From the IMG/VR virus record IMGVR_UViG_3300030012_002750, positions 516 through 64,515 of that record: a stretch of 64,000 bases of DNA. One strand, written 5' to 3'. The translations under genes and the position numbers were made by a program. Under the pieces are notes generated by a model. That model did not search any database. It saw nothing but the letters and a program-made list of their open reading frames with translations, and was not told where the DNA came from. This document shows positions 8,876-44,100 of this stretch, piece by piece (within the stretch, counting starts at the first letter, position 1; each line of letters opens with the position of its first letter). The DNA is from a virus (taxonomy: Duplodnaviria > Caudoviricetes).

Positions 8876-8884
8876 GGTGGTATC

Positions 8885-9463
8885 ATGGTGTGGCCGTTCA
8901 ATAACAATAATCAACAAAATCAGCAACAAAATGGTGCTTTGAATCTTGGATTACCCGGTGGACAACAACAAGTTGCCGCGCAAGGTCAACAGCAATGGAG
9001 TCAACAACAATATGGCTTTCAATATCAAGCACCTCCGACTGAAATGGAGATACTATCAGCGATGATAACAACAAATCCAATGATAGATAAGTGGTTGTCC
9101 GACAATAATGGCTCCAATATGAATATGTTTGTATCACTTTTGAGCAGTTTAGTCGCGGTATCAGTTAATACTTTACTCAAAGATGCGCGTTTAGTTGAAG
9201 ATGGAGATGGATATAAGTTTGATTTTAGCGGAGTTCAAGGATTACCGACTGTTGATAGCGTAACTATGTCGCAAACTCAATTACTAAACAACGCATCAAA
9301 CAATGTTCAGCAAAAAAATATGCAGTTCCAACAAATGGTTCAACTCGCGAATCAAGGTGTAATGCAAAACATGTTGAACGAGGCTATGGCTGACCCCGGA
9401 TTGATGCAAAATGTCGGCGGTGGTATTGGTTCATTTGTTCGTGGAATAGCCGGAGGTAGATGA
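8885..9463 (+). CDS. Gln/Asn-rich hypothetical protein with Gly-rich amphipathic C-terminus
   Basis: SD GAGGTGG; starts MVWPFNNNNQQNQQQ and ends GGGIGSFVRGIAGGR. Confidence 0.8.
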   Translation: MVWPFNNNNQQNQQQNGALNLGLPGGQQQVAAQGQQQWSQQQYGFQYQAPPTEMEILSAMITTNPMIDKWLSDNNGSNMNMFVSLLSSLVAVSVNTLLKDARLVEDGDGYKFDFSGVQGLPTVDSVTMSQTQLLNNASNNVQQKNMQFQQMVQLANQGVMQNMLNEAMADPGLMQNVGGGIGSFVRGIAGGR

Positions 9464-9464
9464 T

Positions 9465-9698
9465 ATGGATATTGGCTCTCTTTACACCACTATTAGTGAT
9501 ATGACTAACTTGCGTAAGTCTGTTGTTGTTGATATGATTATGGTTCAACTTATTTCTTTGACACTTGGTTGTTTCTTAATTTTGGTTTTCTCCGGCCCAC
9601 AGATGTCCTCAACAGATTTAAGTTGGGTTATAGGTGCTTTATTCATCTGTTTCAGCGCAAGCGGTATTGTTTATCGTCGGCTCGGCCAACAAGGTTGA
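9465..9698 (+). CDS. Small two-TM membrane protein
   Basis: SD GGAGGT; two hydrophobic segments and a basic C-terminus (holin-like topology only). Confidence 0.75.
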   Translation: MDIGSLYTTISDMTNLRKSVVVDMIMVQLISLTLGCFLILVFSGPQMSSTDLSWVIGALFICFSASGIVYRRLGQQG

Positions 9699-9947
9699 CC
9701 ATTTTCCAATAGGGCATTCGCTGTTTTTAAAAATAGTTTTTGTTTTGATAAAACAACCACAAAGACTGCATCTATCGTGGTTTCTTTCGGAGCATGTCAA
9801 GCAAATGTTGTAGCGACGCTCTCTTTCTGTTAAGTCTGCGCGTTGATTTGTGATTAAATCAGCCGCGGCTCGCGAAAGACTCTTAGCGGTTCCTAATGAG
9901 ATTGGAACTCCGCCTATTTTTGGTGCGCGTTTCAATCTCTTTCTCAT
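9639..9947 (-). CDS. Small Cys-rich protein, DUF6171-like
   Basis: Pattern RYNICLTC...RCSLCGCFIKTKT...CPIGKW recalls the viral DUF6171 family; the only convincing minus-strand gene. Confidence 0.75.
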   Translation of the reverse strand: MRKRLKRAPKIGGVPISLGTAKSLSRAAADLITNQRADLTERERRYNICLTCSERNHDRCSLCGCFIKTKTIFKNSECPIGKWSTLLAEPTINNTACAETDE

Positions 9948-9985
9948 GGGAAAGACTCTTTTGCTACCACTACTTGGTCTTTGCT

Positions 9986-10654
9986 ATGGCGGAGCGTATA
10001 TCAAGAGCCTCTTGTAAGTTCTGTCAAGACCCCGACCGCGATGGTATCGAAGAAATGATGAAGGCTGGGTTGATTACTGCGAAGCAATTAGACAAAGATA
10101 AAGGGTGGCGAGAAGGCACCGCTGATAGGCATTTTCGCAACCACATGGGAGAATATCACATGGGTAGTAATAGCGAATGTGGTTTTTGTGTATCTTCAAA
10201 AAGAGAAAGTTTGGAGATGGCGTATTTTAACGCCAGTATGACTGTTGAAGAAATAGCCCAAGATTTGCAAATGCCCGAATCCAGTGTTTATCATCATCTT
10301 AAACATCATCTTAAGCCAGTAGTGCAGAAAGGCGCGGCAGATATTATCATAGTTGAGGCTGGTAAAGAAATGGAGAGTTTGCGAACAAATTTATCGCGCA
10401 TAAATGGCGAATTGGGTCATTTTCTTGACGATGCAGACCGCAATGACCCACAATATGTTCGCAACATAGTATCTTTACACAAAGAAGTTCGCGAAACAGT
10501 CAAAGATATTATGAGAGTGCAAGAACGCGCGGCTGGTAATACTAACGAAACCATGAACGCACAGACGATAAACATACTCAAAGTTGAATTAGCGAAAGAG
10601 TCCCCCGAAGTATGGGCGCGGTTGCGTGGTAAATTGATAGGGGGTGATGAATGA
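9986..10654 (+). CDS. Zn-finger/HTH DNA-binding protein with coiled coil; candidate terminase small subunit
   Basis: Duplicated CxxC...HxxxH units (CKFC..HFRNH, CGFC..HHLKHH), HTH TVEEIAQDLQMPESSVYHH and a helical C-terminus; lies upstream of TerL. The TerS role is inferred. Confidence 0.55.
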   Translation: MAERISRASCKFCQDPDRDGIEEMMKAGLITAKQLDKDKGWREGTADRHFRNHMGEYHMGSNSECGFCVSSKRESLEMAYFNASMTVEEIAQDLQMPESSVYHHLKHHLKPVVQKGAADIIIVEAGKEMESLRTNLSRINGELGHFLDDADRNDPQYVRNIVSLHKEVRETVKDIMRVQERAAGNTNETMNAQTINILKVELAKESPEVWARLRGKLIGGDE

Positions 10655-15336: not shown

Positions 15337-16737
15337 GTGCAGTCGTTATCACTTGAAGCAATTGAGGAAATTGACTTTGAGGTAGCGAAGCGTGATTTCA
15401 AATTTTTCTTTGAAGAAATACTTGGGTTTCAACTATCGTGGCATCACGAACAATGGTTCAACAATCTTGAGTCGCGTAAAAGATATTGTGTTAAAGCGGC
15501 GCGTGACCACGGCAAGTCAACGCTATTTCTTGGTTATATGCTTTGGAAAACAGCGTTTAATCCAAAGACCAAAGCGGTATTGATTTCACACAGTCTTCAC
15601 CAGTCTATACATCACATGAGAACACTTAACGATTTGATTGATAGTGTGCCGTTTCTTGCTAAAATGAAGAAGCCGGATTCTTGGTCAAAGACATTTTTTG
15701 GTTTTGCTAATGGTTCTAACATTAGCGCGAAGTCGGTTGGTGGTGCTATCCGTGGTATTCACCCCGACCTTATTTTATGCGACGACATTCTGTGGGGAAC
15801 AACTGACACAGAACTTGCTCGCGTCGCATCATGGTTTTATGAAGTCCTTGTCCCGACGCTCCACCACACATCAAAACTAATGATAGTTGGGACACCCTTT
15901 ACTCCAACTGATTTATACACAGAACTTGAAAGTCGCGACGGTTATCTTGTTGAAACATATCCGGCTATCAATCTCAAAGGTGAAGCGTTGTGGCCGGAGC
16001 GTTGGGACTTAGAATCATTAGATGCGCGCAGAAATGATATGCCAGCGATAGCATTCGCGCGTGAATATCTTTGTGAACCAATGGACGATGTATCAAGTCT
16101 ATTCCCATCAACCATTCTTCAAGCCGCTAAAGACTCATCGTTGAAGTTGATTGAACGCGAAGTAGGCGACCCCGACGACCAATACTTCATTGGTTGGGAC
16201 CCTGCGATTTCAAGCGACCGAGCGGCTGACTATACTGTAATGGTGGTGCTTCGCCGTCCATCAACTAATCCCGAACTGCTTGAGTTAGTTCACGCAATCC
16301 GTCGTAAGAATATGGACTTCCGCACACAGATTATGGAGATTCAAAGACTCAACGCGAAGTTTAACCCCGATGTGATTGAACTTGAAGCAAACAACTTCCA
16401 GCGTGTGTTTGCGACTGAATTACGCGCAGATACAGATTTACCTATCAAGACATTTATTTCCACACGCCAACGCCGCGAGTCGCTTCTCATGGGTTTGGTG
16501 TTGCGCTTTGAGAAAGAGCAAATCCGTTTGCCGTGGGGTGATGACCGTTCTCGCACGCTGATGTCCGAACTTGAGCGGGAGTTGCTTATGTTTGGTATGA
16601 GCAAGAAAGGTCGGCTTGATAGCATCGGTAGGCACGATGACTTTGCTATTGCTCTCGCGTTGGCGCATTGGGCGACCACGGAGTTCCGTGAGCGCATTGT
16701 GGACTTAGATGAAATAATGGCGGGGTTGTTAGATTGA
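15337..16737 (+). CDS. terL: Terminase large subunit
   Basis: Walker A-like AARDHGKST, Walker B LILCDD, coupling motif VGTP, RNase H-like IGWDPA..DYT and C-terminal HDDFAIALALA. Confidence 0.95.
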   Translation: MQSLSLEAIEEIDFEVAKRDFKFFFEEILGFQLSWHHEQWFNNLESRKRYCVKAARDHGKSTLFLGYMLWKTAFNPKTKAVLISHSLHQSIHHMRTLNDLIDSVPFLAKMKKPDSWSKTFFGFANGSNISAKSVGGAIRGIHPDLILCDDILWGTTDTELARVASWFYEVLVPTLHHTSKLMIVGTPFTPTDLYTELESRDGYLVETYPAINLKGEALWPERWDLESLDARRNDMPAIAFAREYLCEPMDDVSSLFPSTILQAAKDSSLKLIEREVGDPDDQYFIGWDPAISSDRAADYTVMVVLRRPSTNPELLELVHAIRRKNMDFRTQIMEIQRLNAKFNPDVIELEANNFQRVFATELRADTDLPIKTFISTRQRRESLLMGLVLRFEKEQIRLPWGDDRSRTLMSELERELLMFGMSKKGRLDSIGRHDDFAIALALAHWATTEFRERIVDLDEIMAGLLD

Positions 16738-17893: not shown

Positions 17894-19281
17894 TTATTGA
17901 TTTATCCGATGAAAATACTTTCATTGATATGATATTGAAAAATACTATACAGGGTGCATCATTTGGTGATGCGCCACAACCAATTAATCAAGGTCAAGGA
18001 CAAGCAAACGCTAATCCAACACCACCAAAGCCCAACGAAACTGGTGAGCAAGAAGAAAAAGACAAAATAAAACAAGTGGTGCAAGAACAACTCAAGCGTT
18101 CATTACCCGATGGAGGTTGGTTTCAATCAATGTTTGGTCGCGGTGCTGGTGATTTAGTTAAAGATTTGAGATTGGCGCGGCGTGAACATAAAGACATGCG
18201 CGATGCTATCGACCACGCTATCGACGCTATTCGCATTGCTAAAAAACAAGAGGTTGAGGCTACCCTTCAATCAATTGAATGGATTGGTAAGCACGAAGAT
18301 ACAGTTAGAAATTTAGGTATTAGTGAGCGTGATTTACAAGCGTTGCGCAAACATGGTGTAAATCGCGAATATGCACTTCGCCGCGCTTGTGTTCAATGGG
18401 AGAAAGCAAATGATATTATCAGTAAATTGCTTTTGATAGATGGGGAATTCAATGATGAACAAAGGCAAATGTGGGTTGACGCACAACAATTAAAAAAGAA
18501 TTCTAAGAAAGAATGGAAAAATAGTTTGCACTCGATTGACAACATCAAAAAAAGTGAAGCGATATGGTTGACTAAAGCAACATCAATACTTGAAAAGCGG
18601 GGTCCGTTATCAGCGAGAGAACTTGTTGGTAGTATGAGCGGAGTGAAAAGTTTAACTACACAGAAATTGAGCGCGCTCTTCAAAATGCATGGAGTTGAAT
18701 ATGATATTGAAAAGATTGGCGCATCATGGGGTATAGTTCGCGATGACACAGTTATTTTCAAAGATGTATGGGCTTACGCCGCTGGATTTCTTGACGCTGA
18801 TGGTTATATTACAATCACTAAGCGTCTTGAGCCAAGGGCTGGGTTTATAGCCACAGGAGAAAGAGGTAAGATGCATTGTGAACAATTACACAAGGCTCTT
18901 GGATGCGGTGTTCTTCAAACAGATTTGAAGATTCATAAAAATAGCAGACGAACGCAACATAGATTACAGTTTTATAGTGAGAATGATTTAAGGAAATTAA
19001 TGAAAGGTTTGCGTCCACACCTCCGAATGAAAAAAGGTCAAGCGGGTGCTGTTCTTGAGTTGCTTAATTTGCGCGGTCGCAAAACTGACATTATCAAATC
19101 TCGACGCGATGAATTGTATCGTATAGTAAAATGGTTAAACTGGAAAGATGTGCCGGACAAGCGTGAAGAATTGCTTAAAGAGTGGAACATTGATGAACTC
19201 GGACTTCATGCGATGTTTAATCGGGATGGCGAAACCCTGCGTCTTCTTGACGACGCTAACCGACTTGTGGAGATGATGTGA
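17890..19281 (+). CDS. Multidomain protein with winged-helix-like region and C-terminal LAGLIDADG endonuclease-like domain
   Basis: WAYAAGFLDADGYITI motif and downstream LRPHLRMKKGQA typical of LAGLIDADG_3-type domains; ILEKRGPLSARELV resembles a winged helix. Confidence 0.8.
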   Translation: MIIDLSDENTFIDMILKNTIQGASFGDAPQPINQGQGQANANPTPPKPNETGEQEEKDKIKQVVQEQLKRSLPDGGWFQSMFGRGAGDLVKDLRLARREHKDMRDAIDHAIDAIRIAKKQEVEATLQSIEWIGKHEDTVRNLGISERDLQALRKHGVNREYALRRACVQWEKANDIISKLLLIDGEFNDEQRQMWVDAQQLKKNSKKEWKNSLHSIDNIKKSEAIWLTKATSILEKRGPLSARELVGSMSGVKSLTTQKLSALFKMHGVEYDIEKIGASWGIVRDDTVIFKDVWAYAAGFLDADGYITITKRLEPRAGFIATGERGKMHCEQLHKALGCGVLQTDLKIHKNSRRTQHRLQFYSENDLRKLMKGLRPHLRMKKGQAGAVLELLNLRGRKTDIIKSRRDELYRIVKWLNWKDVPDKREELLKEWNIDELGLHAMFNRDGETLRLLDDANRLVEMM

Positions 19282-21122
19282 TGGTAGAAGAGAAAGGCTT
19301 AGTTGGTCGTTTTTTGTCAAGATTGACTAAACCGTTCAGTCGGCGAACAACACCCGAACCACAAATGCCTCTTTGGAAAACTGGTATCCAAGAACCCGTC
19401 TTGGTTCAAGGTGTATCAATCCCTGCTCTTTACGCAACAGTTCAAGAGTCAATAATTTTGAGAACAACAATCAATACTTTATGTCAAGAAATATTCCGTC
19501 GCGGTTATTATTGGGAGAAAAAATTCCATAAGAAATGCACTAATTGTCAAGAAGAATATCAACACGATACAGTCAATGAATGTCGTATTTGTGGTAATGA
19601 AGAATTCGATAGCCCCGATGCTGACCAAATACTATACCCGCGCTGGTTGTTGAAGCAACGCAACAGTATGGACCAATCATTTATTGAAGTGATGAAAGAG
19701 ATTGAATGGGATTTAGATATTGTCGATGATGCATTTTTACTGCTCATCAAAGAATACTTCATTGACCCAAAAAGTGGTGAGATTGAGTTTTTCCGAGTCA
19801 AAGAATTAGTGCGTGGCGACCCAACATTCATGCGAATTGTAGCAGATAAAGCGGGTAAGCGCGGAGGTAGATATTTGCTATGCCCTGTTCATCGCGACAA
19901 AACATACCCGCATAACGGCAACCATAGCAAGTGTGATGTGTGTTCTCTTCCTCTTCAAGATGTTCATTATATCAATACAGCAGGTAGTGGTAAAACGCAA
20001 TATTATCTTGACGGTGAAGTATTACACTTGTCCAAATTTAATCCTACCAAACTATACGGTCGTTCACCCGTCGCGAGTATGTGGAGGCAAGCGCAATCAC
20101 TTACTGCTATGGATAATTATATTTATCTCGCATACCAAAAGCGAAGAATACCGCGTGGTGTTCTTGCAATCACTACTGACAATATTCAATCAACTGCTTC
20201 ATTTTGGAAGGGAGCAGAAGAAAAAATGGAGCGCGACCCGCACTATATACCGAAAGTTGGTGTTGAATCTTCATCGGGTCGTGGTAAAGTTGAGTTTGTT
20301 CGCTTCATGGATAGTCTTGATGAGATGCAATACGCGCAAGTCCGTGATGAGATAAGAATGCGTATCGCGGCGTTTTATGGTGTATCTAATGTTTTTATGA
20401 TGGACGCTGGTAAGTCCGGTGGTTTGAACAATGAAGGTATGCAAATCCTTGTGACAAATCGGGCAGTCGAGTCCGGTCAAAAATTATATTCACGCGAATT
20501 ATTCCCAAGAATGTTAGACCAAATGGGAGTTGAAGATTGGTGTTTAACATTATATCCGAATGAAGAAGAAGATGAAATTACACGACTTCGCCGCGATGAA
20601 CAGGAAGTTAACATCGCACAGCGTATGCAAGCACTTGGATTCCAACCGGAATTGACAGAAGATGCAGGTCGCGATATACGCTTTGTCTATAAGAAACCCG
20701 ACCCACAAGAAGCCATGATGCAACAACAAGGTGGCGCGATGGGCGGTGCAATGCCACCGGGAGGCGGTATGCCGCCGGGTGGCGGTATGGCTCCACCAAT
20801 GCCGCCGGGGGGCGGTGGCATACCTCCACAGGGTGGGGGCGCGATGATGCCGCCGGGGGTAGGGGCTTCTCCACCGGCAGGGGGAGCGTCCCCACCCGGA
20901 GGTGGTCAAATAATGATGATGGAGAAAGCAATCGGGTTAGGTGAAGGAACAGGTCAACGCGACCGTGGCCCTGCACCTATTAGTTCCGAAACTCATCAAT
21001 CCGGCGCACCTTCCACTAAGAAAAATCAGCGCGGTGCTAAGAAGACACCGTTAGAGCAAGCACTTGATAGTGTTCAAGCCGCGAAAGACCCAACTAATAA
21101 AGAAAAAGAAAGTGGTTTTTAG
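19281..21122 (+). CDS. Portal protein with zinc-ribbon insertions and Gly/Pro/Met-rich tail
   Basis: DLDIVDDAFLLL, YGRSP, EMQY..RIAAFYGVS..GGLNNEG portal-like motifs; CTNC..CRIC and CPVH..CDVC inserts; sits after TerL. Confidence 0.88.
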   Translation: MVEEKGLVGRFLSRLTKPFSRRTTPEPQMPLWKTGIQEPVLVQGVSIPALYATVQESIILRTTINTLCQEIFRRGYYWEKKFHKKCTNCQEEYQHDTVNECRICGNEEFDSPDADQILYPRWLLKQRNSMDQSFIEVMKEIEWDLDIVDDAFLLLIKEYFIDPKSGEIEFFRVKELVRGDPTFMRIVADKAGKRGGRYLLCPVHRDKTYPHNGNHSKCDVCSLPLQDVHYINTAGSGKTQYYLDGEVLHLSKFNPTKLYGRSPVASMWRQAQSLTAMDNYIYLAYQKRRIPRGVLAITTDNIQSTASFWKGAEEKMERDPHYIPKVGVESSSGRGKVEFVRFMDSLDEMQYAQVRDEIRMRIAAFYGVSNVFMMDAGKSGGLNNEGMQILVTNRAVESGQKLYSRELFPRMLDQMGVEDWCLTLYPNEEEDEITRLRRDEQEVNIAQRMQALGFQPELTEDAGRDIRFVYKKPDPQEAMMQQQGGAMGGAMPPGGGMPPGGGMAPPMPPGGGGIPPQGGGAMMPPGVGASPPAGGASPPGGGQIMMMEKAIGLGEGTGQRDRGPAPISSETHQSGAPSTKKNQRGAKKTPLEQALDSVQAAKDPTNKEKESGF

Positions 21123-22212: not shown

Positions 22213-25200
22213 GTGCGCGAAGATGCTTTTCAATATCATCAACGCGTGGTAAATGATTTTGCGCAAGCGATTATCAACAAACAAGATGCTCGCGACGAAG
22301 CAGTTAATGTTTTACTAAGTGCGAATAACTTAGAGAATCATGGGTATTTACATATACCGTTTAGAGAAGAAGCAGAAAACTTCCTCAAAGGACCACAATT
22401 ACAAATAAAAACTCCAACTGAAAAAGGCATGGAGAGAATTTTCTCCGGTGGTGAAACAAGGGCTGAACCTGCACCCCAGCGACACCACAAGCCACGACAG
22501 TTGTTCAATAGCGATAAATGGAGCGAGGCTAATGAGAATCTAAACGAAGATGAAATTGACAAGATGGTTAGAAAATTAGTAGGCTTCCGTTTTGAAGATA
22601 GTATCCCAAACCTAAGAGATTTTAGTTCCGATGAAATTATTGGCAACCATTCCAAATTCAAAACATTAGGTCTTCACCCTCCACGCGCAGGTGAAATTTC
22701 TTACAACGAGAAACCGTTATGGCAACAATTAGCGAGATTTCTTTTCAGTAATAACGGAGCAAACGCTGAAAGACTACACGATGCGATGGTGAAGACAGCA
22801 AAGGGTTTGCACCCTGTCTTGAAACAAATACATCATTTTGGTGATTGGAGAGGTAATAATGCTTCTATTCTAAAAATATTCAACCGTGGGTTAGAAGATT
22901 TCAAAGAATCGTTTGCTAAAAAGTTTGGACACGCGCACCCTGTATTATCACATGAGCAATTAAATGAGTTGTTTTTAAGACAAAAGTTTTGGGAGAATGA
23001 AGGTGTATCGCGCCAACAAGCGTTTGACATATTATACAATGACGGAGGATTCCCTCGTAGGTTTTCGGACGAAGGTGATACAACGCCTGTTGAACAGTTA
23101 CGCGCTATCGCTGACGCTAAAAGAAAAAGGCGGTCAAGACCAATGGAAGGTGAAGAAAATCATGGTATAGTTGGCGATGATGCTTGGCGATATGGTATTG
23201 CTTTACTTCCCTACGATGATATTTACAGAATTAAAAAGTGGCTTTTAACAACCAACGGTGGTATGAAAGATGATGGGACAGTTGGTAATGATGATGTGAT
23301 TAAAGATATTCTTGGACCCGACGCGAGAGGATACATGGCTAACCACGCGTTCATGATAGATAATATGCTTAACGAGTTATACGCTGGTAATCCTTTGAAA
23401 AACGGTATGAGTCATGTATTACCTAATCGCTTTACTGCTAAAGGAAGAGCAGAAATGAAGAAGCAAATGGCTCAAAGAGAACAAGATTTGACAAAGAAGT
23501 TTGAAAGAAACAATTGGTCTAATATTGATGCTGATACTCTTCAATCAGCGTTGGCGGGTTTTGACATAAAAACCATGGTGAAGAAATATGCTGATAAAGC
23601 CAATGCTGAAATAATAGATGATGGTGGTTTATATCCACATATTGACCATAGTGAATATGGCTCTTTCATTTACATGTCGCCCGACTTTGAACCTCGCGAC
23701 ATGAAAAGTTTGGTTAATCATAATTTCTTTGAAAAAGAAGAATTGAAAGACATAATAAAAGTAAGCGCGAATCTTGTTGGACAAAGTGAATACGCAGATA
23801 GTATTCGCGAAACTGTTGCTGGATATACTCATAGTCATAATGTTGATGGGGAGTTTAGTATGCTTGACAAACCCGAAGTAAATTTAACTCCGTTGGGTAT
23901 TTTGATGGAAGGTGTCGGCACCAAAAGAGGTAGTGCTGGTGGTGAATCCGGTGACTTTGGTGTTGCTTACGATAATGCTTTTCCTAATATCTTCCGCGTT
24001 GAGTTGCCCGAAACAGCGTTTATGATACCGAGTAGGGGCTTGAAAGAAGGTGGTGGTAAAGCAAAGTCGGTTGAACAACAAGATGTTTTTGACCCTCAAA
24101 AAGAAAATGATGAGGGGCAGGTTGAACAAGATTTGTTGAGAGCGATGGACAAATATAATGTTGATAATAAAGATGAGATACTTGCGCGTTTTAGAAATGG
24201 TGAAGTGGTTAGTCTTGATGTTCCGCGAAAAGTAAAGACCACAGATGACATCGTTAATGAAATCATCAATCCTTACTCAAATGAACTAAGAGAAGAAGAA
24301 GGAGTTGACCCGATAAGAGGTTTTGAAGGTATAGAGGCATACACCGAAGGTATGCCACAACTTAGAAGTCCATCATCATTAGGTATGAATTCTTTTATGA
24401 TGGCTCACAGCGATGCTTTGAATTTACTTCTAAGAAGCCATGTTGGGTTTTTGAGTAATGATAACAAATCCGTTCATAGCACAGAAGCCTCGTTAAAAAC
24501 ACCAAGATTCACCGCGCAGAAAGAAAGGATAAATAGTGAAAAAAGAGGCCGCAGAAGAATGCTTGACAGAAATCAAATGTCCGGTGGTAAAGGTTCGGGT
24601 CAAGCCGATACAGCAAGAGAATTTGGAACTAAGAAAGGTAATATTACCAATGAACTTAGAATGGCGATAGACGCGCTTTTACTTGGTTCGCACCATGCGC
24701 AACACATTCATGATGATGAATCGCTTGATTTGCTTACAGCGATTCTCAACGCGAAAAAAGGAGAAAGACTAAACATACTCAAGAATGGTTCACACAAAGA
24801 TATAATCGGTTATGGTGGAAGAACAGGCGAAGATATGGTTAAAGAAATACTGGAAGGTGTTGAAGAACCATCAAGGCTTGCGCTATACAAAAAAGAAGAT
24901 TTTGATAACCACCTCAACCATTTAATGAGTTTTGACAAACCCTATGAACTACCCGACCATCAAGTAAAAGGAATTAAATCAAGAAATAGATTGATTCAAG
25001 AGATTAAAAATCTCGACCACGAATATCAACAAGCGCGCGAAAATGATGATGTTGACAAGATGGCTACTATCCAACAACGGATAGAAGGTATGTTGAACTC
25101 CGAAGATGATGTTGTTGGATATATGCACGACGAAGATGAAAATAAATTATCCGCGATTGTTGTCGGACCAAGCCCTGCTTCGCTTATATCTCAACATGAA

Positions 25201-28182
25201 GCAATGTTAGGTAATGCTTTACAGATTGCTCGCAATGAAGGTGATGAGATTTCTCAAGAAGTCATTGAGAAAAGAATGCAACAACTCCGTCAAATTGCTC
25301 AACGCGAACCTTCTTACGAATCTTCAATAAAGAATGATGAAGACCATATACAGAATCACATTGACACTATCTTAGGTGTTGGAAAAATATTCAAAGCATT
25401 ACGCCCAGCGATTGAAAAAATATATCCTAATATATTTGCTAAAGACAATCGCGAAGCGCACGCGGCTACTGCATATACATTGAAACTCGCAGAACAAATA
25501 CTTACAATGTCGCCCGATGCGAGAAGAAAACTATTCACAGGAAAAGACAATATCCGTTTAGGTGGTAAAAAAGCATCATTTGATTTATCCCCACAAGAAG
25601 TTGATGAGTTAGAGGGAATAACAGCAATGCGCGCTACACACGAAGGCTCCGACTATGAAGATGCAGAAAAAATACTTGATAGCAAATTCGGCGGTGTTCA
25701 ACCAAAAGGATACAATGTGTTAACACATCTTGCTCAAAATGCTAATAACATCAATGAAGATGAAATAAGAATTTTTGATGAACTAATAAAGAATGTCAAA
25801 GAGTCAGCGAAAGAGCAAGGTATAACTTTCAACCAAGCATTTACCGCGAGATATTATCCTATCAATGAGGCTGGTAATCCTATTAGCGGCATAGAAAGAA
25901 AAAGATTGTTTGACATACTCAACATACCTAAGAGGGGTGGTAATAATTTTATCTATAACGAAGGTGGTATTTTTCACGGTCGCGAACAGTTAAGAAGTGG
26001 TGGTCAAAGTATTCTTGATAAAGACGGTAAAACAATCAGTCTTGACAAAGAGCGCGATTTAATTTTTAGACTATTACACAATACTCATCAACAAACAAGA
26101 AAGGGTAGTGATGTCGCTTTGGATTTCAAAAACATGAAGTTCTTTAAAAATAACAGACCCAACACTAAGAGCGTTATGAATTTTAATAAGTTAAAATCAA
26201 TTCAAAATATAGCAAGTTTGCTTAGTAGCGACACTAAAACTGATATGCTTGACAAATCAACAGCGGGTGAACAAGCAACCCCTATGGGTGGTCACAACTT
26301 TGACCACGCGCCTGTTGTTCCTATATTTACCAGCACACACAAAAAATTCCACTACGGTGAAGATACGAATGTGCCGTTTATTGTAAGACCGGACGCGTTG
26401 AATGATGGTATGTTGCTTCTTGAAGACGAAGGTAATCACGCCTATAACACACTACCTAAGCAAAGATTGTTTGCTCCGCGAAATTTGAGAAGATATGTCA
26501 ACCCTTCCCTCAAGCCGTTGACTACGGCTCAACAAGGAGATAGATATTATGGTGATTATGCGGAGTTTAGCGAAGGCCAAGAACCGAACCCGAACACCCG
26601 TATGGGGCAAGTGGTGAATCAAGCAATGGCTACTTCACCCGAACCATTACAGTCAACTGATGATAATATGAGATACTCGTCGCATGTTCTTGATGTCGCG
26701 CTTGATGACACCCTCATTATCAAAGACGATGGCAAACCACAACCTATCAAATTCATGCATCGCATTTTTGATTTAGAAGACATGACTCATCTGCGCGGTT
26801 TTACTGGTGATTGGGTCATAAGTCTATATCCGCATGGTGAACACATCATCGCTACTAAGAAAGATAACAAGATAAGCGCGTATAGCGTTGATGGTGAAGT
26901 TAAGTTAGATGATGTGTTTAATGAAGAGGTTAGCAAAGTGTATGAAAAAGATTTCATAGTTCACGCGATATTACATGATGGTATCATGACAGTAATTGAT
27001 TTACTTAAGACGGCTGATGAAGATACACATAACATGCCGACTAAAGACCGTATCCGCCACCTTCGCGCTCAATACGAATCCAGCGAACACATCAAGATGC
27101 CCGAACCTATCAACACAAAGCGTAGCGATGATGAAGGGTTGAAGACAGCAGTTGAAGGGTTGAGAAAAGAAAATGATATGGATATACTACTTAGAGATGC
27201 TAACGCTACATATATGAAAGGTGAACCTCGTCACCCTAAGTGGGTATTATTAACTCAAGAAAAAATGGTTGATGTTGTCATTTTATCCGCCAGCGGAAAA
27301 AATTACACGGTTGGTGTTGGTCCATTGATGCACCCCGAAAATTACGGTAAGCGCGCACAGCAAGTTGGTGATGAACATTACATGAATGTTGGAAGCGCGA
27401 AAGGACCACGCGGATTGAAGGTTGGAGATTTCGCTACTGTTAGTTGCACAGGTGTAAGCAGTTCTAAGAAAGATAATCCAGTCTATCGTATCCGGTCTGC
27501 TAAGATAACAGACAATGAACCACTTGCCGCTGACAGTGTTGAAACTCTCGCAATCATGTGCGGCGACCATCATATTCCTCAACAAGTCAATATGAAGAAA
27601 GGCAACATCACTATTCTATTCCCCGCATTTGATGATGAGGTTGTTTGTAAAACACGAAAAGAAGATGGACATTGGTTTGTTGAGCCTCAATCTTCAATTT
27701 GGGGCAACGATTACCTTGTCAAATTAGCACGCGACCAAGAAGTGTATTGGGGTGCAAAGGCCGCTTGGTTGTTGAAAAGAGATGAAGAAGAACCCGAATA
27801 CGACGAGGTTGACCCCGAACCACCAGCGGGTCATAGCAAGAAACCGAAGAAGGTGCTTGAAGAAGAAGAAGAAGTTATCAAGCGTGGGTTGGAATTGATT
27901 GAGCGCGGTCTTGAACATATTAGTAAAGAGAAGATTACAAGCACAGGAGTTCAAGGGTTGGGAATGGATTATGCAACACCCGATGAATCACCGCGAGGAC
28001 CAACACAAAATATACGCGACAATACTATGCCCGACTTTGACCCCCAATCGCGAACAGATGATGAATTAAAACCTGCTACTAAGAAAAAAACCAAGCGACT
28101 GCGAACAAGTCAAGGCGAAACTGCGCGTCTTGAAGACGATGGAGTTGTCGCGATTGAGAACAGTTCCATTGATATACAATGA
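22213..28182 (+). CDS. 1989-aa protein with a C-terminal degenerate ATP-dependent DNA ligase-like (NTase plus OB) region
   Basis: About 26750-27570 follows ligase motif spacing: WVISLYPHGEH (I), FIVHAIL (III), TVIDLL (IIIa), DILLRDANATYMKG..HPKWVLL (IV/V), VDVVIL..YTVGVG (OB). Confidence 0.75.
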   Translation: MREDAFQYHQRVVNDFAQAIINKQDARDEAVNVLLSANNLENHGYLHIPFREEAENFLKGPQLQIKTPTEKGMERIFSGGETRAEPAPQRHHKPRQLFNSDKWSEANENLNEDEIDKMVRKLVGFRFEDSIPNLRDFSSDEIIGNHSKFKTLGLHPPRAGEISYNEKPLWQQLARFLFSNNGANAERLHDAMVKTAKGLHPVLKQIHHFGDWRGNNASILKIFNRGLEDFKESFAKKFGHAHPVLSHEQLNELFLRQKFWENEGVSRQQAFDILYNDGGFPRRFSDEGDTTPVEQLRAIADAKRKRRSRPMEGEENHGIVGDDAWRYGIALLPYDDIYRIKKWLLTTNGGMKDDGTVGNDDVIKDILGPDARGYMANHAFMIDNMLNELYAGNPLKNGMSHVLPNRFTAKGRAEMKKQMAQREQDLTKKFERNNWSNIDADTLQSALAGFDIKTMVKKYADKANAEIIDDGGLYPHIDHSEYGSFIYMSPDFEPRDMKSLVNHNFFEKEELKDIIKVSANLVGQSEYADSIRETVAGYTHSHNVDGEFSMLDKPEVNLTPLGILMEGVGTKRGSAGGESGDFGVAYDNAFPNIFRVELPETAFMIPSRGLKEGGGKAKSVEQQDVFDPQKENDEGQVEQDLLRAMDKYNVDNKDEILARFRNGEVVSLDVPRKVKTTDDIVNEIINPYSNELREEEGVDPIRGFEGIEAYTEGMPQLRSPSSLGMNSFMMAHSDALNLLLRSHVGFLSNDNKSVHSTEASLKTPRFTAQKERINSEKRGRRRMLDRNQMSGGKGSGQADTAREFGTKKGNITNELRMAIDALLLGSHHAQHIHDDESLDLLTAILNAKKGERLNILKNGSHKDIIGYGGRTGEDMVKEILEGVEEPSRLALYKKEDFDNHLNHLMSFDKPYELPDHQVKGIKSRNRLIQEIKNLDHEYQQARENDDVDKMATIQQRIEGMLNSEDDVVGYMHDEDENKLSAIVVGPSPASLISQHEAMLGNALQIARNEGDEISQEVIEKRMQQLRQIAQREPSYESSIKNDEDHIQNHIDTILGVGKIFKALRPAIEKIYPNIFAKDNREAHAATAYTLKLAEQILTMSPDARRKLFTGKDNIRLGGKKASFDLSPQEVDELEGITAMRATHEGSDYEDAEKILDSKFGGVQPKGYNVLTHLAQNANNINEDEIRIFDELIKNVKESAKEQGITFNQAFTARYYPINEAGNPISGIERKRLFDILNIPKRGGNNFIYNEGGIFHGREQLRSGGQSILDKDGKTISLDKERDLIFRLLHNTHQQTRKGSDVALDFKNMKFFKNNRPNTKSVMNFNKLKSIQNIASLLSSDTKTDMLDKSTAGEQATPMGGHNFDHAPVVPIFTSTHKKFHYGEDTNVPFIVRPDALNDGMLLLEDEGNHAYNTLPKQRLFAPRNLRRYVNPSLKPLTTAQQGDRYYGDYAEFSEGQEPNPNTRMGQVVNQAMATSPEPLQSTDDNMRYSSHVLDVALDDTLIIKDDGKPQPIKFMHRIFDLEDMTHLRGFTGDWVISLYPHGEHIIATKKDNKISAYSVDGEVKLDDVFNEEVSKVYEKDFIVHAILHDGIMTVIDLLKTADEDTHNMPTKDRIRHLRAQYESSEHIKMPEPINTKRSDDEGLKTAVEGLRKENDMDILLRDANATYMKGEPRHPKWVLLTQEKMVDVVILSASGKNYTVGVGPLMHPENYGKRAQQVGDEHYMNVGSAKGPRGLKVGDFATVSCTGVSSSKKDNPVYRIRSAKITDNEPLAADSVETLAIMCGDHHIPQQVNMKKGNITILFPAFDDEVVCKTRKEDGHWFVEPQSSIWGNDYLVKLARDQEVYWGAKAAWLLKRDEEEPEYDEVDPEPPAGHSKKPKKVLEEEEEVIKRGLELIERGLEHISKEKITSTGVQGLGMDYATPDESPRGPTQNIRDNTMPDFDPQSRTDDELKPATKKKTKRLRTSQGETARLEDDGVVAIENSSIDIQ

Positions 28183-28199: not shown

Positions 28200-29651
28200 A
28201 TGGCGATTCTCGCGGCACCGTCTGTATCCAGCAACCCTGTCATTTTGAAGGGTATTGGTGACGACCTTGTTGTTGCTGGATATGCGTCTGTTGAGATGGT
28301 TGACAAGCAAGGCGATTTAATTACTCGCGGTGCTTTGAAAGATGCTTTTGGTAAATTTATGAAAGCAGATGGATTCCGCAATGTTCAACTTGCTCATTCT
28401 AATATTCAAGTAGGAAGTGTCATTCCTTCCTACACAGATTCAAGTGGTCGTGTTTGGAAGTCCGAAGTGGACGACACAGGTATGTTTGTAGTTATCAAAC
28501 TACGCGGCGACATAGAGAAGGCACGCGAAGTGGCTTCCGAAATCCGCAAAGGGAACTTGCGCTCGTTCTCTATCGGCGGTCAAGCATTTGAGCGCGTTAA
28601 CAAGAGCGACCAAACTCGCGGTGATTACCGCGAAATCCGTCGTATGGAACTCCATGAGGTTACAATTTGTGAGAAGGGTATCAACCCCGAAGCGCAATTT
28701 AGGATTCTCAAGGAGGACAAAGGTGATAATATGACTAACACAATGAGCGAATTGCAAAGTGTCCTTGAACGCTTGTCAAAGAAACTTGACGACAAGGACA
28801 AAGACAAGGAAAACGATAATGACAAGGCTATGATGGCTGATGACAAAAAGAAAGATGATAAAGAGTCCAAAAACAAAGGCATTGAAGACCTTCTTGACGC
28901 GCCCGATAAAAAGGACGAGGACGATGACGGCAACATGACGGAAACTCTTCGTGAAGCGCGACAAGACAAGAAGAAAGATGACGATGACGAGGACATGGAA
29001 GACATGAACTATGGAGATGATGATATAACAAACAAAGCAGATGATATGATAACGAGCGATTATTTGACTTGGTTAGAGCAGACCGCAAAAGGCGCAGGTT
29101 TTGACCCGTCTGCGGCGCGCGACCATTTCAATAAAGGATACGGACCGGGCGAAAGTGCATTTGACATGCGTGGACAAGGTTCTCTTGAAGGAGCAGGTGA
29201 AGACGACTCCGGTAAGAGGCCACAACCAAACTTTGGTTCTGCTCCAACAGGAAATAAGAATGTAATTAAGGGCGACTACCTAAACGCACACAATGTTTCA
29301 CCAAGTGAAATAGAAGCGGCGTATGAAGTGTATAAAGCGGCGGCAATGGAACAACAATTCAAGGCTGACCTAAACAACAACTTCACAGACAGGTTCCTAA
29401 AAGAACAAAAGCAAGAAGCAGATGCGATAGCAAAGCAAGACTTTGACGCTCGCGCACCTCTTGTTGAACTACAAAAGGCTGTTCTTGCGCTAAACGACAG
29501 AATTGACAATGTTTCCTCAACAGCAACAACAATAGCAAAGTCCGCTAACAGCGCGACTGTTACAATTCCCGAAACTACTGAATTAGCATCAATGTCGTGG
29601 GACGATGTCCACCGACTTGCTAACAAGGCGTTGAAGGGAGGTGAATACTGA
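28200..29651 (+). CDS. HK97-type prohead protease fused to scaffolding domain
   Basis: VAGYASVEMVDKQGD, LAHSN, LRSFSIGG, LHEVTICEKGINPEA; acidic coiled-coil C-terminal region; directly precedes the MCP. Confidence 0.92.
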   Translation: MAILAAPSVSSNPVILKGIGDDLVVAGYASVEMVDKQGDLITRGALKDAFGKFMKADGFRNVQLAHSNIQVGSVIPSYTDSSGRVWKSEVDDTGMFVVIKLRGDIEKAREVASEIRKGNLRSFSIGGQAFERVNKSDQTRGDYREIRRMELHEVTICEKGINPEAQFRILKEDKGDNMTNTMSELQSVLERLSKKLDDKDKDKENDNDKAMMADDKKKDDKESKNKGIEDLLDAPDKKDEDDDGNMTETLREARQDKKKDDDDEDMEDMNYGDDDITNKADDMITSDYLTWLEQTAKGAGFDPSAARDHFNKGYGPGESAFDMRGQGSLEGAGEDDSGKRPQPNFGSAPTGNKNVIKGDYLNAHNVSPSEIEAAYEVYKAAAMEQQFKADLNNNFTDRFLKEQKQEADAIAKQDFDARAPLVELQKAVLALNDRIDNVSSTATTIAKSANSATVTIPETTELASMSWDDVHRLANKALKGGEY

Positions 29652-30799
29652 TGGCAAGAAATTATGTAAGAACAGTTCAAGACATGGAAAGATACTACTA
29701 CGGCGGAGCATCGCAGACAGGATATACCTACGGCTCCGGTGACATACTAAAGGCAGATGCGCCTCTACTATCATCCACAGCCGGAACATACCAAGCAATA
29801 TACGGCAGAAAAGTATGGTCGCAATTGAATCAAGAATTCAATGCATTTTCTATACTACCAAAGAAGCCGTGGGAAAGAAGTGGATGGAGAATCCTAACTG
29901 GTCGTGCTGACTTTACCAAAGGTGGAGGAATCGCGGAGAACGGAACACTACCGGACACAAGCAGACCGGAATTCCTACATGTAGCCGCAAAGCCAAAGAC
30001 CATCGCGCACACTTTTGACCTATCCGAAGTGAGCATGTTCTTGTCCGACAAGGACGATGGTTTGGGCGATGTCCGACAAGTCTTGAAAGAAGAAATGGGT
30101 AAGCATCACGCTGAACACATTAACAGAATGCTTCTTGAAGATGTTGACACACCAGTTGGAAATGACTTTGAATCTCTTGATAGATTAACTTCCGACCCCG
30201 ACAAGATGACCACAGGAACAGGCCATGTAAGCGCAACTACTGACCACGACATTTACTCCATTACTCGCGACGGAAGTGCAGATTTCCACAGCGCGGAAGT
30301 TGATGTTTCAGCAAGTTCAAGCACTAACAGAAACCTATCTTTAAACCAACTTGACGGATTGTTCCAGCAACTATGGACTCGCGGTGGTAATCCAAAGGTT
30401 ATGCTAACTGGATATGATACTCTAATGAGAGTTCAGCAGTTGCTACAATCCCAACAAAGATTCATGGACAGCAAGAGAATCACACCAACCTATAACGGTG
30501 TAAAGGGTGTTCCGGGGCTTGAGGCTGGTTTCATTGTGGCTACCTATAATGGTGTCCCAATTATCCCAACCAAAGACATGCCTCAAGATGGAGCGGGTTC
30601 AATATCCCGTATGTATTATCTTGACACAGATTACCTATGGTTCCAAACTGCTATCCCAACTCAATATTATGAATCCGGTATAGAAACTGGCGACCCATTC
30701 GCGATTAACCGTCTTGGACAAGAGGGGCTTTACAGAACTATGGGAGAACTATGGTGTTCTTTCTTTGGTGCAAGTGGTAGCATTCGTGACTTACAATGA
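29651..30799 (+). CDS. Major capsid protein (HK97 fold, halovirus/magrovirus-like)
   Basis: 382 aa immediately after the protease; YGRKVWSQLN, LPKKPW..SGWR, FESLDR, YNGVPIIP, YRTMGEL motifs. Confidence 0.9.
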   Translation: MARNYVRTVQDMERYYYGGASQTGYTYGSGDILKADAPLLSSTAGTYQAIYGRKVWSQLNQEFNAFSILPKKPWERSGWRILTGRADFTKGGGIAENGTLPDTSRPEFLHVAAKPKTIAHTFDLSEVSMFLSDKDDGLGDVRQVLKEEMGKHHAEHINRMLLEDVDTPVGNDFESLDRLTSDPDKMTTGTGHVSATTDHDIYSITRDGSADFHSAEVDVSASSSTNRNLSLNQLDGLFQQLWTRGGNPKVMLTGYDTLMRVQQLLQSQQRFMDSKRITPTYNGVKGVPGLEAGFIVATYNGVPIIPTKDMPQDGAGSISRMYYLDTDYLWFQTAIPTQYYESGIETGDPFAINRLGQEGLYRTMGELWCSFFGASGSIRDLQ

Positions 30800-37275: not shown

Positions 37276-37704
37276 ATGAAGCGCGATATGCACATTGGTG
37301 GTGAGCGACCACTTCACATTCGTGCTGTTGAGAAAGATACTTTCCTTGTTGAAGATGTATTTAACCCCGAAGCCGCGAAGACCGACGGCAACCCATTCCC
37401 CGAAGAACTGCAAGAAGAAGCAGTTGAAACGACCCCGCTTGAAGAAGAGGGTCCAACCGATTACGAGTCCATGACAGTTGAAGAATTAAAAGCACTTTTA
37501 CGAGCGCGCAGTCTTGATGTCAAGGGTAAAAAGGCGGAACTCATTACCCGCCTTACCGAAGCCGATACCCCCTCCGATGAGGCAGTTGAAGTGGAGGCTG
37601 TCGCTCCCTCCGTTGAGGCCGCGACCAGTAGTGAGGGAGTAAGTGATAACAATGCCGAAGATAGCAGACCCGATGAGCCTCTTGGTGAACAGCCAAGCGG
37701 TTGA
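37276..37704 (+). CDS. Acidic protein with SAP domain
   Basis: YESMTVEELKALLRARSLDVKGKKAELITRL fits the SAP consensus. Confidence 0.8.
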   Translation: MKRDMHIGGERPLHIRAVEKDTFLVEDVFNPEAAKTDGNPFPEELQEEAVETTPLEEEGPTDYESMTVEELKALLRARSLDVKGKKAELITRLTEADTPSDEAVEVEAVAPSVEAATSSEGVSDNNAEDSRPDEPLGEQPSG

Positions 37705-41162: not shown

Positions 41163-44100
41163 ATGACGGTTATTACTCATTCAACTCATGCTATGTTTTT
41201 CAATGGCATCAGCGATAGTGTAGTTTGTCCTCAAGGAATTTTTACCAAAACTGGTCATAAGCGCGAGATATATGGCGGGGTTGCTCGCTCTTCTGCGCCT
41301 ATATTACAAGACGACGACGGCCACCGTTTTGCTAACGCAAATAACCAAACGCTGGGTAAATTCACAGTTGAGGCTTGGGTATCTCCCGATTGCGGTGGTA
41401 TAATCGCAAGTAAAGATGAACTGTTTGAATTGCGTATGGGGACAATTGATGCTCCGGGTGTTGCATCTTTTAAAGTTCAATTTAGCAACGGTGTTACAGC
41501 AATTGCTTCAAGCGCGAATAATTATCCGACAGCGGCGGCAAGTTTTGTTAGGAATGATGTTGGATACAATAAAGGACAGCGCGAATTATATCACATATCG
41601 GGAGAGTTCAACGGTGAACAGGTTAAACTATATGTCAATGGAGAATTGATGGCTTCACATAAAATGAACAAAAAATACACATGTAATCTCAACGACCAAG
41701 ATTTTTACATTGGTGGTAAAGGTGGAGAGTATCGCGGATACATAGAGTCTGTTCAATGGAAAAATGATGTATCAACAATGGAAAGTCGGACTAAGCCTTT
41801 GATGTTGTCGAACAGCACTATTGGTCTTTGGCGATTTGAAGAACCAGTTGAGGTTGATGATGATGTTTTTTACATCACATCAAATGTTAACGCTGGTGAT
41901 ACTACAATTACGATAGGAGCCGCCGCGTGTCAATCATTATACGAAACAGTAAGTGGTAAATCCGGCACACTGTTTACTACTTATACTCTTGAAAGTCTTG
42001 GTAATTATCAAGTTGCTAACGCCGCTCATAGCGGTGGTGCGCAAGTTATTGAAGTTCCGCACACGATGTTTAATTTAATTATCAACCCAACAGGAACCGA
42101 TGTATTATCTCAACAACCTAACGGTTCACCACCGGAGCGTGTGCGTCTTAAATCAATCAATCCTCTCGGAACAATCACCGTTGAAAGCATACATCTTGAT
42201 TTCAGTGTATCAACAGACACAGGTGCGCGTGGTGTTTTACATTCGCGCACAGCATTCAACAGCGGTAATAACCTCGCTAATGACTCCGCGATGGTTTTGG
42301 TGCGCTCGGATTTATTGATTGATGGTGAAACAGGCAAGCCGTATCAAAGAATTGGGACAGCAAGCCAAGCCATTGATAGAACAGGTGCAATGGTTATTGA
42401 TGAAAGCCCAAATGAATTTCATGGTTTTTTATATTCAAGAAGTCTTGCCGTTGGTAATAATTTTTCACCCGCTTCTTGGACTATCGCGGAGCGTTTCAAA
42501 TCCGGTCATACTGGCCGTCATAAATACACACATAGAGAAGGACACCCTTACCTTCATTTGCTACCACCTATACACGAACAGGAGTTAACAAGAACTATTG
42601 ACGGTATATCCGATGACGCGCTGATTACATTTGCGGGTAGTTATATTGGTTTAAAATCAGCAATACCAATCAATAGCAAAGCCTTTGTTTCGCACACAGC
42701 ATTTAACGGGAAAATAATGAAAGTTAAAACATCGGCTACAACTAACGGTGTTGTTCGTAATGGTCTTGCTTCTATTGATGCTCACCGCGATGGTATAATC
42801 GCAATATCAGTTGATGATATTGAGCCATTTTTATTAAAGGGTGGAGGTATAGGTGTTAATTCACAATCGGATAGTCAATACATAAACCATCTTACACCGG
42901 AAAAAGATTCGCGTGTTGCTATCCTTGAAGTGGCGGGTTTGACCGCTAAATATGTTGAGATTCATTATAACGCTATTGACCTCACAGGAGGTAAAATGGG
43001 GTTAGCAAATCCAGCAATTCTTGTCGAGAAAACAGTCCCCGATGGTGGTTGTTTATTAGATGGTAAAAGAGTTGCCGCGCATATCGCTGATGCTGTTGGT
43101 GCTGGCGCGACAATACATTCTCCGGGCGGTATCATTACTGCTTCACCGCAAGATGTGGGCGATGCTCAAGTTGCTATGAAACCTCACCATCTCGTAGGAG
43201 ATAACGCAGGTGGGTTTGATTATGAAAAGGGATTGAATGAATCATTTTTACCATCTGCATATACACCTCGTAGCACAGGTGACGAACCTAATAAGCCACC
43301 ACAAGGGGTAGCAACAACAACTCACCCATCAGTATATCACAGAATACATATTCAACCAATGCAAAGAAGTGCAAGCGACCCACCAATAAATGAAGCACCA
43401 ACTCACTATCAAGAGAGTGTTCAGTTTGCTTCACAGAAAGGTGGGGCGTTTGAGATGTTTGATGTGATTGATAACAATAAGCAAGGTGATTCATATATTT
43501 TTATTGTTCAGCCGAGTAAGCGCGAAAGAACAATGCAATTGTCGCGAACAACACCTGCTACAATTGATTCTAACGATTGCACTTTCTTTACAATTGAGTA
43601 TATTCAATCAACCGTAAGAGTAGTTTCAATGCAGGTAAATGATACAGGCGCGGGTCGTTATTTAGTTATGGAGGGGCAAGGTATGATGAGTGATGTGTCC
43701 GACCAAACAGTATCTTATGGTGGTGATGGCAGTCGTGATTCTCATATCGTCAAAGAAATACAACCGGGCGCACCTGTTGTATCTGTTACTCTTGGTGGTG
43801 CGGGTCAAGGTGCTATCAATACAAAACCATCATGGGACCCTGCATCTATATCGCGCGTTGGTTGGAATACTCGACAGACTTGTGCAGTTAGAGTTGCCAG
43901 TTTTGATACTACGGCAAACACAATAACAGTAATTACACTAAACAATAAAGCGCGACACATTGGTTCGATGCAATCAACTTCTTGGGGAACATATTGTTTT
44001 CCAGCGACAGGTCGCATATATTTACCGAATGGTGCAAATGCTGAATATACATCTAAAACTGGTTCAGCATTTACATTCCCTGCATTCTCAACACTCTCAC

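Follow-up and report, generated by a model that had tools for sequence, protein, structure and literature searches.

The DNA analysed here is a stretch of 64,000 nucleotides (hereafter the window) that makes up nearly all of a 64.5-kb virus record, IMGVR_UViG_3300030012_002750, with an estimated completeness of 61%. Among its head genes lies an open reading frame (ORF) for a giant protein of 1989 amino acids (aa), and residues 1509-1775 of this protein (window positions 26737-27537) form a ligase-like module composed of an adenylation, or nucleotidyltransferase (NTase), domain and an OB domain. We conclude that residues ~1509-1775 are quite probably a two-domain module derived from the ligase that magroviruses carry in their structural module, which has lost its chemistry and works non-catalytically. 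A first-pass annotation, made from the sequence alone, had proposed a pseudo-ligase at this place, and the proposal is borne out by the NTase and OB folds, by homology to intact ligases, by the loss of the same residues throughout the family and by purifying selection.

A DNA ligase fold in a giant protein

The ATP-dependent DNA ligase fold named in the first-pass annotation was recovered by structure prediction. An AlphaFold2 model of residues 1490-1826 (46 homologues) reached a mean predicted local distance difference test score (pLDDT) of 87.2, and a Foldseek search of the PDB gave 132 matches at E ≤ 1e-3 (best 2e-13); every one of the 48 matches listed is an ATP-dependent DNA ligase or a complex containing one. 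With VIA-align, the model matched the P. furiosus ligase 2cfm with a Z of 20.9 and a root-mean-square deviation (rmsd) of 3.8 Å over 269 aligned residues (model residues 8..297), a match that covers both the NTase and the OB domain. The NTase domain alone matched human LIG1 (9bs4_A) with a Z of 19.6 and an rmsd of 2.6 Å over 175 aligned residues. Among predicted viral structures, an 827-aa protein without a name ranked first (5e-24), with viral DNA ligases and capping enzymes next in rank. At the sequence level, a phmmer search of the PDB with the window domain had an unrelated protein as its best match (E 1.2). The ligase family PF01068 was matched at E ≤ 1 in 17 of 24 scanned family members, with only three above the curated cut-off of 26.2 bits, and these matches involve only profile positions from 79 on, mostly ~100-204 of 204.

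The ligase-like domain had been thought to end the ORF. It does not: an alpha/beta part (residues 1776-1826), hardly touched by the VIA-align fold matches, and a conserved 163-aa tail come after it (Table 1). As to the rest of the giant protein, neither the whole nor any of five pieces matched Pfam or PHROG, and a protein atlas search with the N-terminal 1489 residues gave no usable match. The AlphaFold2 model of residues 1-500 is mostly alpha-helical (pLDDT 70.6); no fold was recognised for it by Foldseek (best E 0.35), and the best VIA-align match (Z 8.3) concerns residues 3-61 only, a 59-residue generic helical bundle. As for a MuF-like domain, the mark of portal-associated, ejected minor head proteins of the MuF or SPP1 gp7 type, the giant protein gave no Pfam or PHROG match, and the model, which covers residues 1-500, matched no fold.

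The giant protein is conserved as a single ORF, of ~1600-2500 aa in metagenomic proteins. A word-based search found 174 relatives, of which the 120 listed have lengths of 1379-2557 aa, and at least 581 of the 599 viral-contig stretches matched were confirmed to contain relatives. A tblastn search of 50,697 phage records with the domain and tail gave 17 records, all at E ≥ 0.9 and with coverage ≤ 15%, that is, no cultured relative in that collection.

Loss of the catalytic residues

The motif changes were mapped by alignment, with BLASTP and hhalign, to an intact sister ligase, P0210. The stretch up to and including motif I reads GFTGEYVVQEKYDGMR in P0210 and GFTGDWVISLYPHGEH in the window, without a gap. 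At motif I, YPHGEH (26827-26844) takes the place of KYDGMR, so that Lys is replaced by Tyr, and both Asp and Arg by His. Motif III lies in FIVHAIL (26953-26973): where P0210 has LDAE, the window has VHA followed by I and L, with His for Asp, no Glu, and Ile at the Glu position. Motif IV, EGxxxK in ligases and EGVVIK in P0210, is found as MDILLR in the region MDILLRD (27178-27198), with Arg for Lys, and motif V, WxKxK (WIKWK in P0210), has become WVLLT in the region KWVLLT (27238-27255), both Lys being gone. An hhalign comparison of T7 ligase alone with alignment A3 (27 sequences of the domain only) was not significant (E 0.099, 64 columns); taken as no more than a second look at motifs IV and V, this non-significant match is consistent there with the alignment to P0210.

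The degenerate readings first given for motifs I, III and V hold, and all the strings quoted were confirmed at verified coordinates. For motif IV the loss stands, and the reading DI proved to be one residue off, the correct one being MDILLR. The motif spacing, which had been described as kept, is so only roughly, as the interval from motif III to motif IIIa is ~22 residues shorter in the window module than in the intact sister.

How general this loss is was assessed by aligning to the family profile 336 distinct domain sequences in which the adenylation part is covered. The motif I Lys is absent in 331 of them, its position being occupied by W (106), M (99), Y (77), I (24), F (8), L (7) or H (6), by K in five and by others in four. 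None of the 336 has the motif III Glu (I in 197, V in 99, others in the remainder), and the motif III Asp is retained in 241, though not in the clade of the window. The motif IV Lys is Arg in 335. At motif V the first Lys is found in none and the second in 33, and no member has the full catalytic set. The conservation of the loss among homologues, proposed in the first-pass annotation as a check, is therefore observed. With so strong a fold match, and with the substitutions seen again and again across 336 distinct homologues, the degenerate motifs are not a product of chance.

It had also been considered that a Lys elsewhere might support adenylation. No repositioned nucleophile Lys is seen near the motif I position; the near-invariant Lys of the dead family number just two, K15 of the disordered linker and K187, the latter shared with intact ligases. 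With the Lys of motif I, the Asp and Glu of motif III, the Lys of motif IV and the two Lys of motif V all lost, no ligase-AMP intermediate should form and no DNA should be sealed. Such an inability to ligate follows from the established ligase mechanism and, to our knowledge, the motif I Lys is required by all covalent nucleotidyltransferases.

An intact sister lineage with its ligase in the same slot

Searched with A3 as the profile, 1.84 billion representatives yielded 290 proteins at E ≤ 0.001, among them proteins of 696-1079 aa with strong PF01068 matches (~1e-29 for five) and a motif I of the KYDGMR type. The intact-type cores keep motifs I, IV and V in 54 of 54 distinct sequences, and match the motif III pattern in 49 of 54. 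By hhalign, A3 and P0210 are related with a probability of 99.9% (E 3e-33) over 292 columns, which span the OB domain, and the window protein itself matches by BLASTP (E 4e-21) an 832-aa ligase with intact motifs encoded at a locus we call L220 (ORF 8001-10499). That the window module shares descent with the structural-module ligase of magroviruses is clear from these alignments.

L220, which comes from a 92-kb record with terminal repeats, has the gene order terminase, HNH-like ORF (1065-2657; 2.8e-6), portal, three ORFs of 631, 123 and 171 aa, intact 832-aa ligase, prohead protease and capsid protein; its HNH-like ORF occupies a place equivalent to that of the one in the window. The 631-aa ORF upstream of the L220 ligase showed no relation to the N-terminal part of the giant protein (hhalign E 0.17). 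The intact structural-module ligases have ~300 further C-terminal residues (~570-858 in P0210), which have no Pfam match at E ≤ 0.01 and, by BLASTP, no relation to the tail of the window protein.

The two lineages also differ in their ligase content. Five of five records of the intact lineage have two PF01068 matches, in ORFs of 450-510 aa and of 830-981 aa, the latter being the structural one. In five of five records of the dead-module lineage that are 88-100% complete, the sole PF01068 match is a weak one inside the giant ORF, and in the record of the window and three closer relatives (one 98% complete) PF01068 is absent at E ≤ 1.

In a tree of 43 cores, 36 dead and 6 intact rows are split by one branch, with support of 90/77 and 88/77, which is below the starring threshold; the only outgroup was T7 ligase, on a very long branch. 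Such a tree is compatible with a single inactivation event but does not demonstrate it.

Selection on the module

The module is under strong purifying selection. Across 31 close relatives, the median ratio of non-synonymous to synonymous substitution rates (dN/dS) is 0.048 for the ligase-like module, 0.069 for the tail and 0.165 for the N-terminal 1489 residues, as computed from the 14 of 465 pairs with unsaturated synonymous divergence. A set of 56 pairs at 60-97% identity ranks the regions in the same order; since its dS is largely saturated (>1), only the 14 unsaturated pairs are relied on. Column conservation in 46 full-length relatives is 0.42-0.67 over module and tail, except for the last 34 residues, against 0.04-0.35 over the first 1500 residues. 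Alignment A3 contains 36 invariant residues, although some of its rows are only 33% identical to the window. Purifying selection, which the first-pass annotation had suggested looking for, thus acts on what is the best-conserved part of the protein.

Linker, tail and possible processing sites

The module is preceded by a flexible linker and followed by the conserved tail. In alignments A1 and A3, no fewer than 90% of the rows have K15 of the linker motif (LT..DLL.K). In the tail alignment A4 (33 sequences), W20, L28, G86, G103, T105 and D115 are invariant, and in 32 of the 33 the last three residues of the stretch that comes after the module are L-L-K or L-L-R. The flanking sites noticed in the first-pass annotation, LIIK/D and AAWLLK/R, are therefore present and conserved (positions in Table 1); they would suit cleavage by a protease, and cleavage itself is a conjecture.

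Residues 1-27 of the prohead protease (28200-28280) begin ...NPVILKGIGDDL, with a hydrophobic-hydrophobic-Lys sequence that is kept in relatives. This stretch resembles the TLIIKDD motif of the linker, and may be no more than the initial strand of the protease fold.

A GLG...RGP motif occurs both in the C-terminal tail of the portal protein (20952-20990, residues 559-571) and in the tail of the giant protein (27958-28008, residues 1916-1932), and in no other + strand ORF of at least 80 aa in the window. In its strict form it was found in 31 of 117 portals and 65 of 236 giant tails, and in none of 185 proteases or 153 capsid proteins. Portals of the dead-ligase lineage carry it in 28 (strict) or 62 (loose) of 77 cases, those of the intact-ligase lineage in none of 32. 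As the pattern was defined post hoc and the lineages are not independent, we regard this apparent co-occurrence as a lead only. A complex prediction for capsid protein, protease-scaffold and tail residues 46-125 (score 0.00, in a run without controls) speaks neither for nor against an interaction.

What the module may do

Strong purifying selection on the best-conserved part of the protein implies that the module must work, and without catalysis. It would then be a binding module, its ligand being most plausibly DNA nicks or ends, as bound by ligases, and otherwise a head protein. In favour of DNA are the basic OB domain and the Arg residues conserved at what were ligase positions; by analogy with ligases, we rate the chances that the module binds nicks or ends as about even. 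The giant protein would be loaded into the procapsid, for which the odds seem slightly better than even, and the neighbouring prohead protease might free the module at the conserved hydrophobic-hydrophobic-Lys sites, a step we put forward tentatively and consider doubtful. A role in the virion, in binding DNA ends and protecting or bridging them, as suggested in the first-pass annotation, is plausible from gene position and analogy. In its most complete form, the proposal would be that a former head-module ligase has become a packaged clamp for genome ends or nicks, which is cut from a 220-kDa precursor at LLK sites, enters the cell with the DNA and shields the ends of the linear genome until host enzymes act, the GLG...RGP tails being a loading or processing signal. 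We consider this full scheme improbable.

Several observations weigh against a pseudo-ligase that clamps DNA. The window domain matches neither PF01068 nor any other ligase family of Pfam even at E ≤ 10, and a full-length family profile found only spurious low-complexity matches among PDB sequences, so the ligase assignment rests on the fold and on the intact sister. The net charge of the module is slightly acidic, with an isoelectric point (pI) of 5.6 for the NTase domain; intact sisters are similar, and net charge and pI do not separate dead from intact cores, which makes this point neutral with respect to DNA binding. For these uncultured viruses, packaging, cleavage and DNA binding are all conjectural. 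Five members (P0216, P0217, P0224, P0225 and P0229) do have a Lys at the motif I position; they form a long-branched subfamily with a QKKPxG motif I, in full-length-looking ORFs of ~1100-1160 aa, and lack the Glu of motif III and the Lys of motifs IV and V. Finally, many charged residues are invariant in A3 (H27, R28, D34, D107, R124, R129, D150, R172, D173, E182, R184 and H185), and these could point to a new binding or catalytic site rather than to plain DNA clamping.

Three other explanations are considered: a structural role, a different enzyme, and decay. The module may bind no DNA at all and instead make protein-protein contacts or serve as a structural part, either in the head interior or in head assembly, for example within an internal core or scaffold-like protein, with the ligase fold reused only for its stable body. 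The gene sits within the head-assembly block, beside the protease/scaffold gene, and large, uncharacterised proteins are likewise encoded between the portal and capsid genes of haloarchaeal relatives. Moreover, the residues of the nucleotide pocket are now hydrophobic (W/M/Y, I/V and L), and inactivated enzymes have taken structural or accessory roles in poxviruses, including A20, a dead derivative of an NAD-dependent ligase (10.1101/2022.11.22.517515). However, Arg residues are invariant at ligase positions, R172 standing at the motif IV Lys of P0210 and R184 at another Lys of P0210; the OB domain of the window is basic (pI 9.2), and no protein partner was identified. We hold a structural role to be possible, but unlikely.

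That the module is still an enzyme, with another nucleophile or another nucleotide-dependent reaction, would account for the invariant charged or polar residues, a dozen or so (H27, H185, E182 and D173 among them), that exceed the needs of the fold, and for the subfamily with a Lys at motif I. This is highly unlikely, given that the motif I Lys is missing from 331 of the 336 domains, that the motif III Glu and the first motif V Lys are missing from all, that motif IV has Arg in 335, and that the folded part has no conserved Lys apart from K187, shared with intact ligases. Lastly, a functionless remnant of a decaying ligase gene fused to its neighbour, to which the lost catalytic residues and the absence of PF01068 matches in the closest relatives of the window might point, is scarcely credible for a module that is the most conserved part of the protein (dN/dS ~0.05), keeps 36 invariant residues in A3 down to 33% identity and is present in hundreds of viral contigs. 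A ligase module that lost its chemistry and would serve in binding is the reading that we favour.

Source genome and neighbouring genes

In the collection of 50,697 phage records, relatives of the capsid protein were found only among haloarchaeal siphoviruses, the nearest in culture, at 34-35% identity, and in three archaeal metagenomic viruses; a family B DNA polymerase is present in five of five related near-complete records. Magroviruses, the viruses of marine group II archaea, have been described with a similar pattern of gene relationships (Philosof 2017, PMC5434244), and because the halovirus-type relatives of its capsid protein match that pattern, the virus of the window is classed as magrovirus-like, rather than placed in one of the named groups (A, B, C, D, E or X). 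In the record of L220, the match to the family B polymerase (G009:C1:35404-37326) falls into two pieces, the first containing one TAA; this recalls the split polymerase genes reported for magrovirus group B1 in the same paper.

The giant ORF had been placed between portal and protease, and this is its position, three small ORFs intervening after the portal gene and the S78 protease gene coming directly next (Table 1). A tail tube protein is encoded beyond the major capsid protein gene. Further away, among the tail genes, are a 142-aa protein with a SAP DNA-binding domain (37276-37704; 5.4e-15) and a 5162-aa ORF (41163-56651), probably a giant fibre or adhesin, in which an N-terminal Laminin_G_3 or concanavalin-like domain (5.9e-10) and nothing else was recognised. 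An ORF of at least 2123 aa (3-6374), open at the 5' end of the window, has no Pfam match.

Table 1. Features of the head-gene region and of the giant protein, in window coordinates
Feature	Position	Strand	Basis or remark
Large terminase	15337-16737		Head module context
HNH-like ORF, 463 aa	17890-19281		Between terminase and portal genes; weak HNH-endonuclease match, 1.5e-11
Portal protein	19278-21122	+	phrog_18178, 6e-72
Three small ORFs			Between portal gene and giant ORF
Giant head-module ORF, 1989 aa, GTG start	22213-28182	+	ORF call
N-terminal 1489 residues of giant protein	22213-26679	+	Poorly conserved, no recognisable family
Flexible linker with conserved LT-x-x-D-L-L-x-K	26680-26736	+	pLDDT <50, model residues 1-14; TLIIK at 26710-26724
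Ligase adenylation (NTase)-like domain, dead motifs	26737-27264	+	Fold match and motif mapping
OB-fold domain of ligase-like module	27265-27537	+	2cfm match; hhalign to P0210
Small helix and beta-sheet extension (residues 1776-1826)	27538-27690	+	Secondary structure, pLDDT 64-85
Conserved 163-aa C-terminal tail	27691-28179	+	Stretch ending AAWLLK (27760-27777), acidic stretch, TG-x-x-GLG-x-D-Y-A-T-..-SP-x-GPT-..-PDFDP (27946-28044)
Prohead protease (S78), long C-terminal extension, probably scaffold	28200-29651	+	PF04586, 6.2e-10, residues 25-178 of 483
Major capsid protein	29651-30799	+	phrog_24667, 1.6e-59

Comparison with known systems

Magroviruses count among the archaeal viruses that are most abundant in the surface ocean. 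For them, Philosof 2017 (PMC5434244) described a ligase 'embedded in the structural module'; this second ligase has stood as an oddity without an explanation ever since. The comparison extended to Xu 2023 (PMC10160649), to the 2025 paper on Poseidoniales viruses (PMC11706807) and to the ICTV profile of Aoguangviridae (PMC10768690). In the parts of these four main texts that were compared, no statement was found on an inactivation of the structural-module ligase or on its fusion into a giant protein. The structural-module ligase is already known; its inactivated giant-protein form appears undescribed, in that no paper on it was found among these sources.

The DNA ligases of known structure that come closest are 2cfm, human LIG1, LIG3 and LIG4 and the ligase domain of M. 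tuberculosis LigD, with which the window module shares a closed arrangement of NTase and OB domains (Z 16.9-20.9). Compared with two-domain and archaeal or eukaryotic ligases, it has 12-19% identity and is without the essential Lys and Glu residues of motifs I, III, IV and V, and upstream of it no N-terminal DNA-binding domain could be recognised.

Among viral proteins, poxvirus A20 (OPG148) is an inactivated derivative of an NAD-dependent ligase that acts as a processivity factor (10.1101/2022.11.22.517515). It has in common with the window module a ligase fold in a virus, a catalytic site that is disrupted and a task other than catalysis, but it belongs to the NAD-dependent class, has its role in the replisome and comes from a eukaryotic virus, so that no common descent is implied.

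T4 gp2 and Mu N are phage virion proteins that bind DNA ends. Their likeness to the window protein would be one of function only, as packaged proteins that hold or protect the ends of an ejected genome, the role proposed in the first-pass annotation; a relation in sequence or fold is not expected.

The closest system remains the magrovirus structural-module ligase itself, represented by P0210 and by the 832-aa ORF of L220. Like the giant ORF, it lies directly upstream of the prohead protease gene; the homology extends over the NTase and OB domains, and a family-specific stretch before motif I reads PMYRIFDLEDLxELRGFTG in the structural-module ligase and FMHRIFDLEDMTHLRGFTG in the window. The intact form is a protein of 830-981 aa with all motifs, whereas the window form, at 1989 aa, has no catalytic residues and other N- and C-terminal parts. 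Genomes with the intact form have a second ligase of 450-510 aa; the lineage of the window has no PF01068 match beyond the giant ORF. In this very large sister lineage, found in at least 581 viral-contig stretches, the module is a conserved pseudoenzyme within a giant protein. Automatic labels of 'DNA ligase' on such genes are therefore misleading, and the role of the head-module ligase may be wholly independent of ligation. With an intact module in one lineage and a dead one in the other, both in the same slot, the two forms make a clean natural pair for probing the part that a ligase fold plays in the head of a virus.

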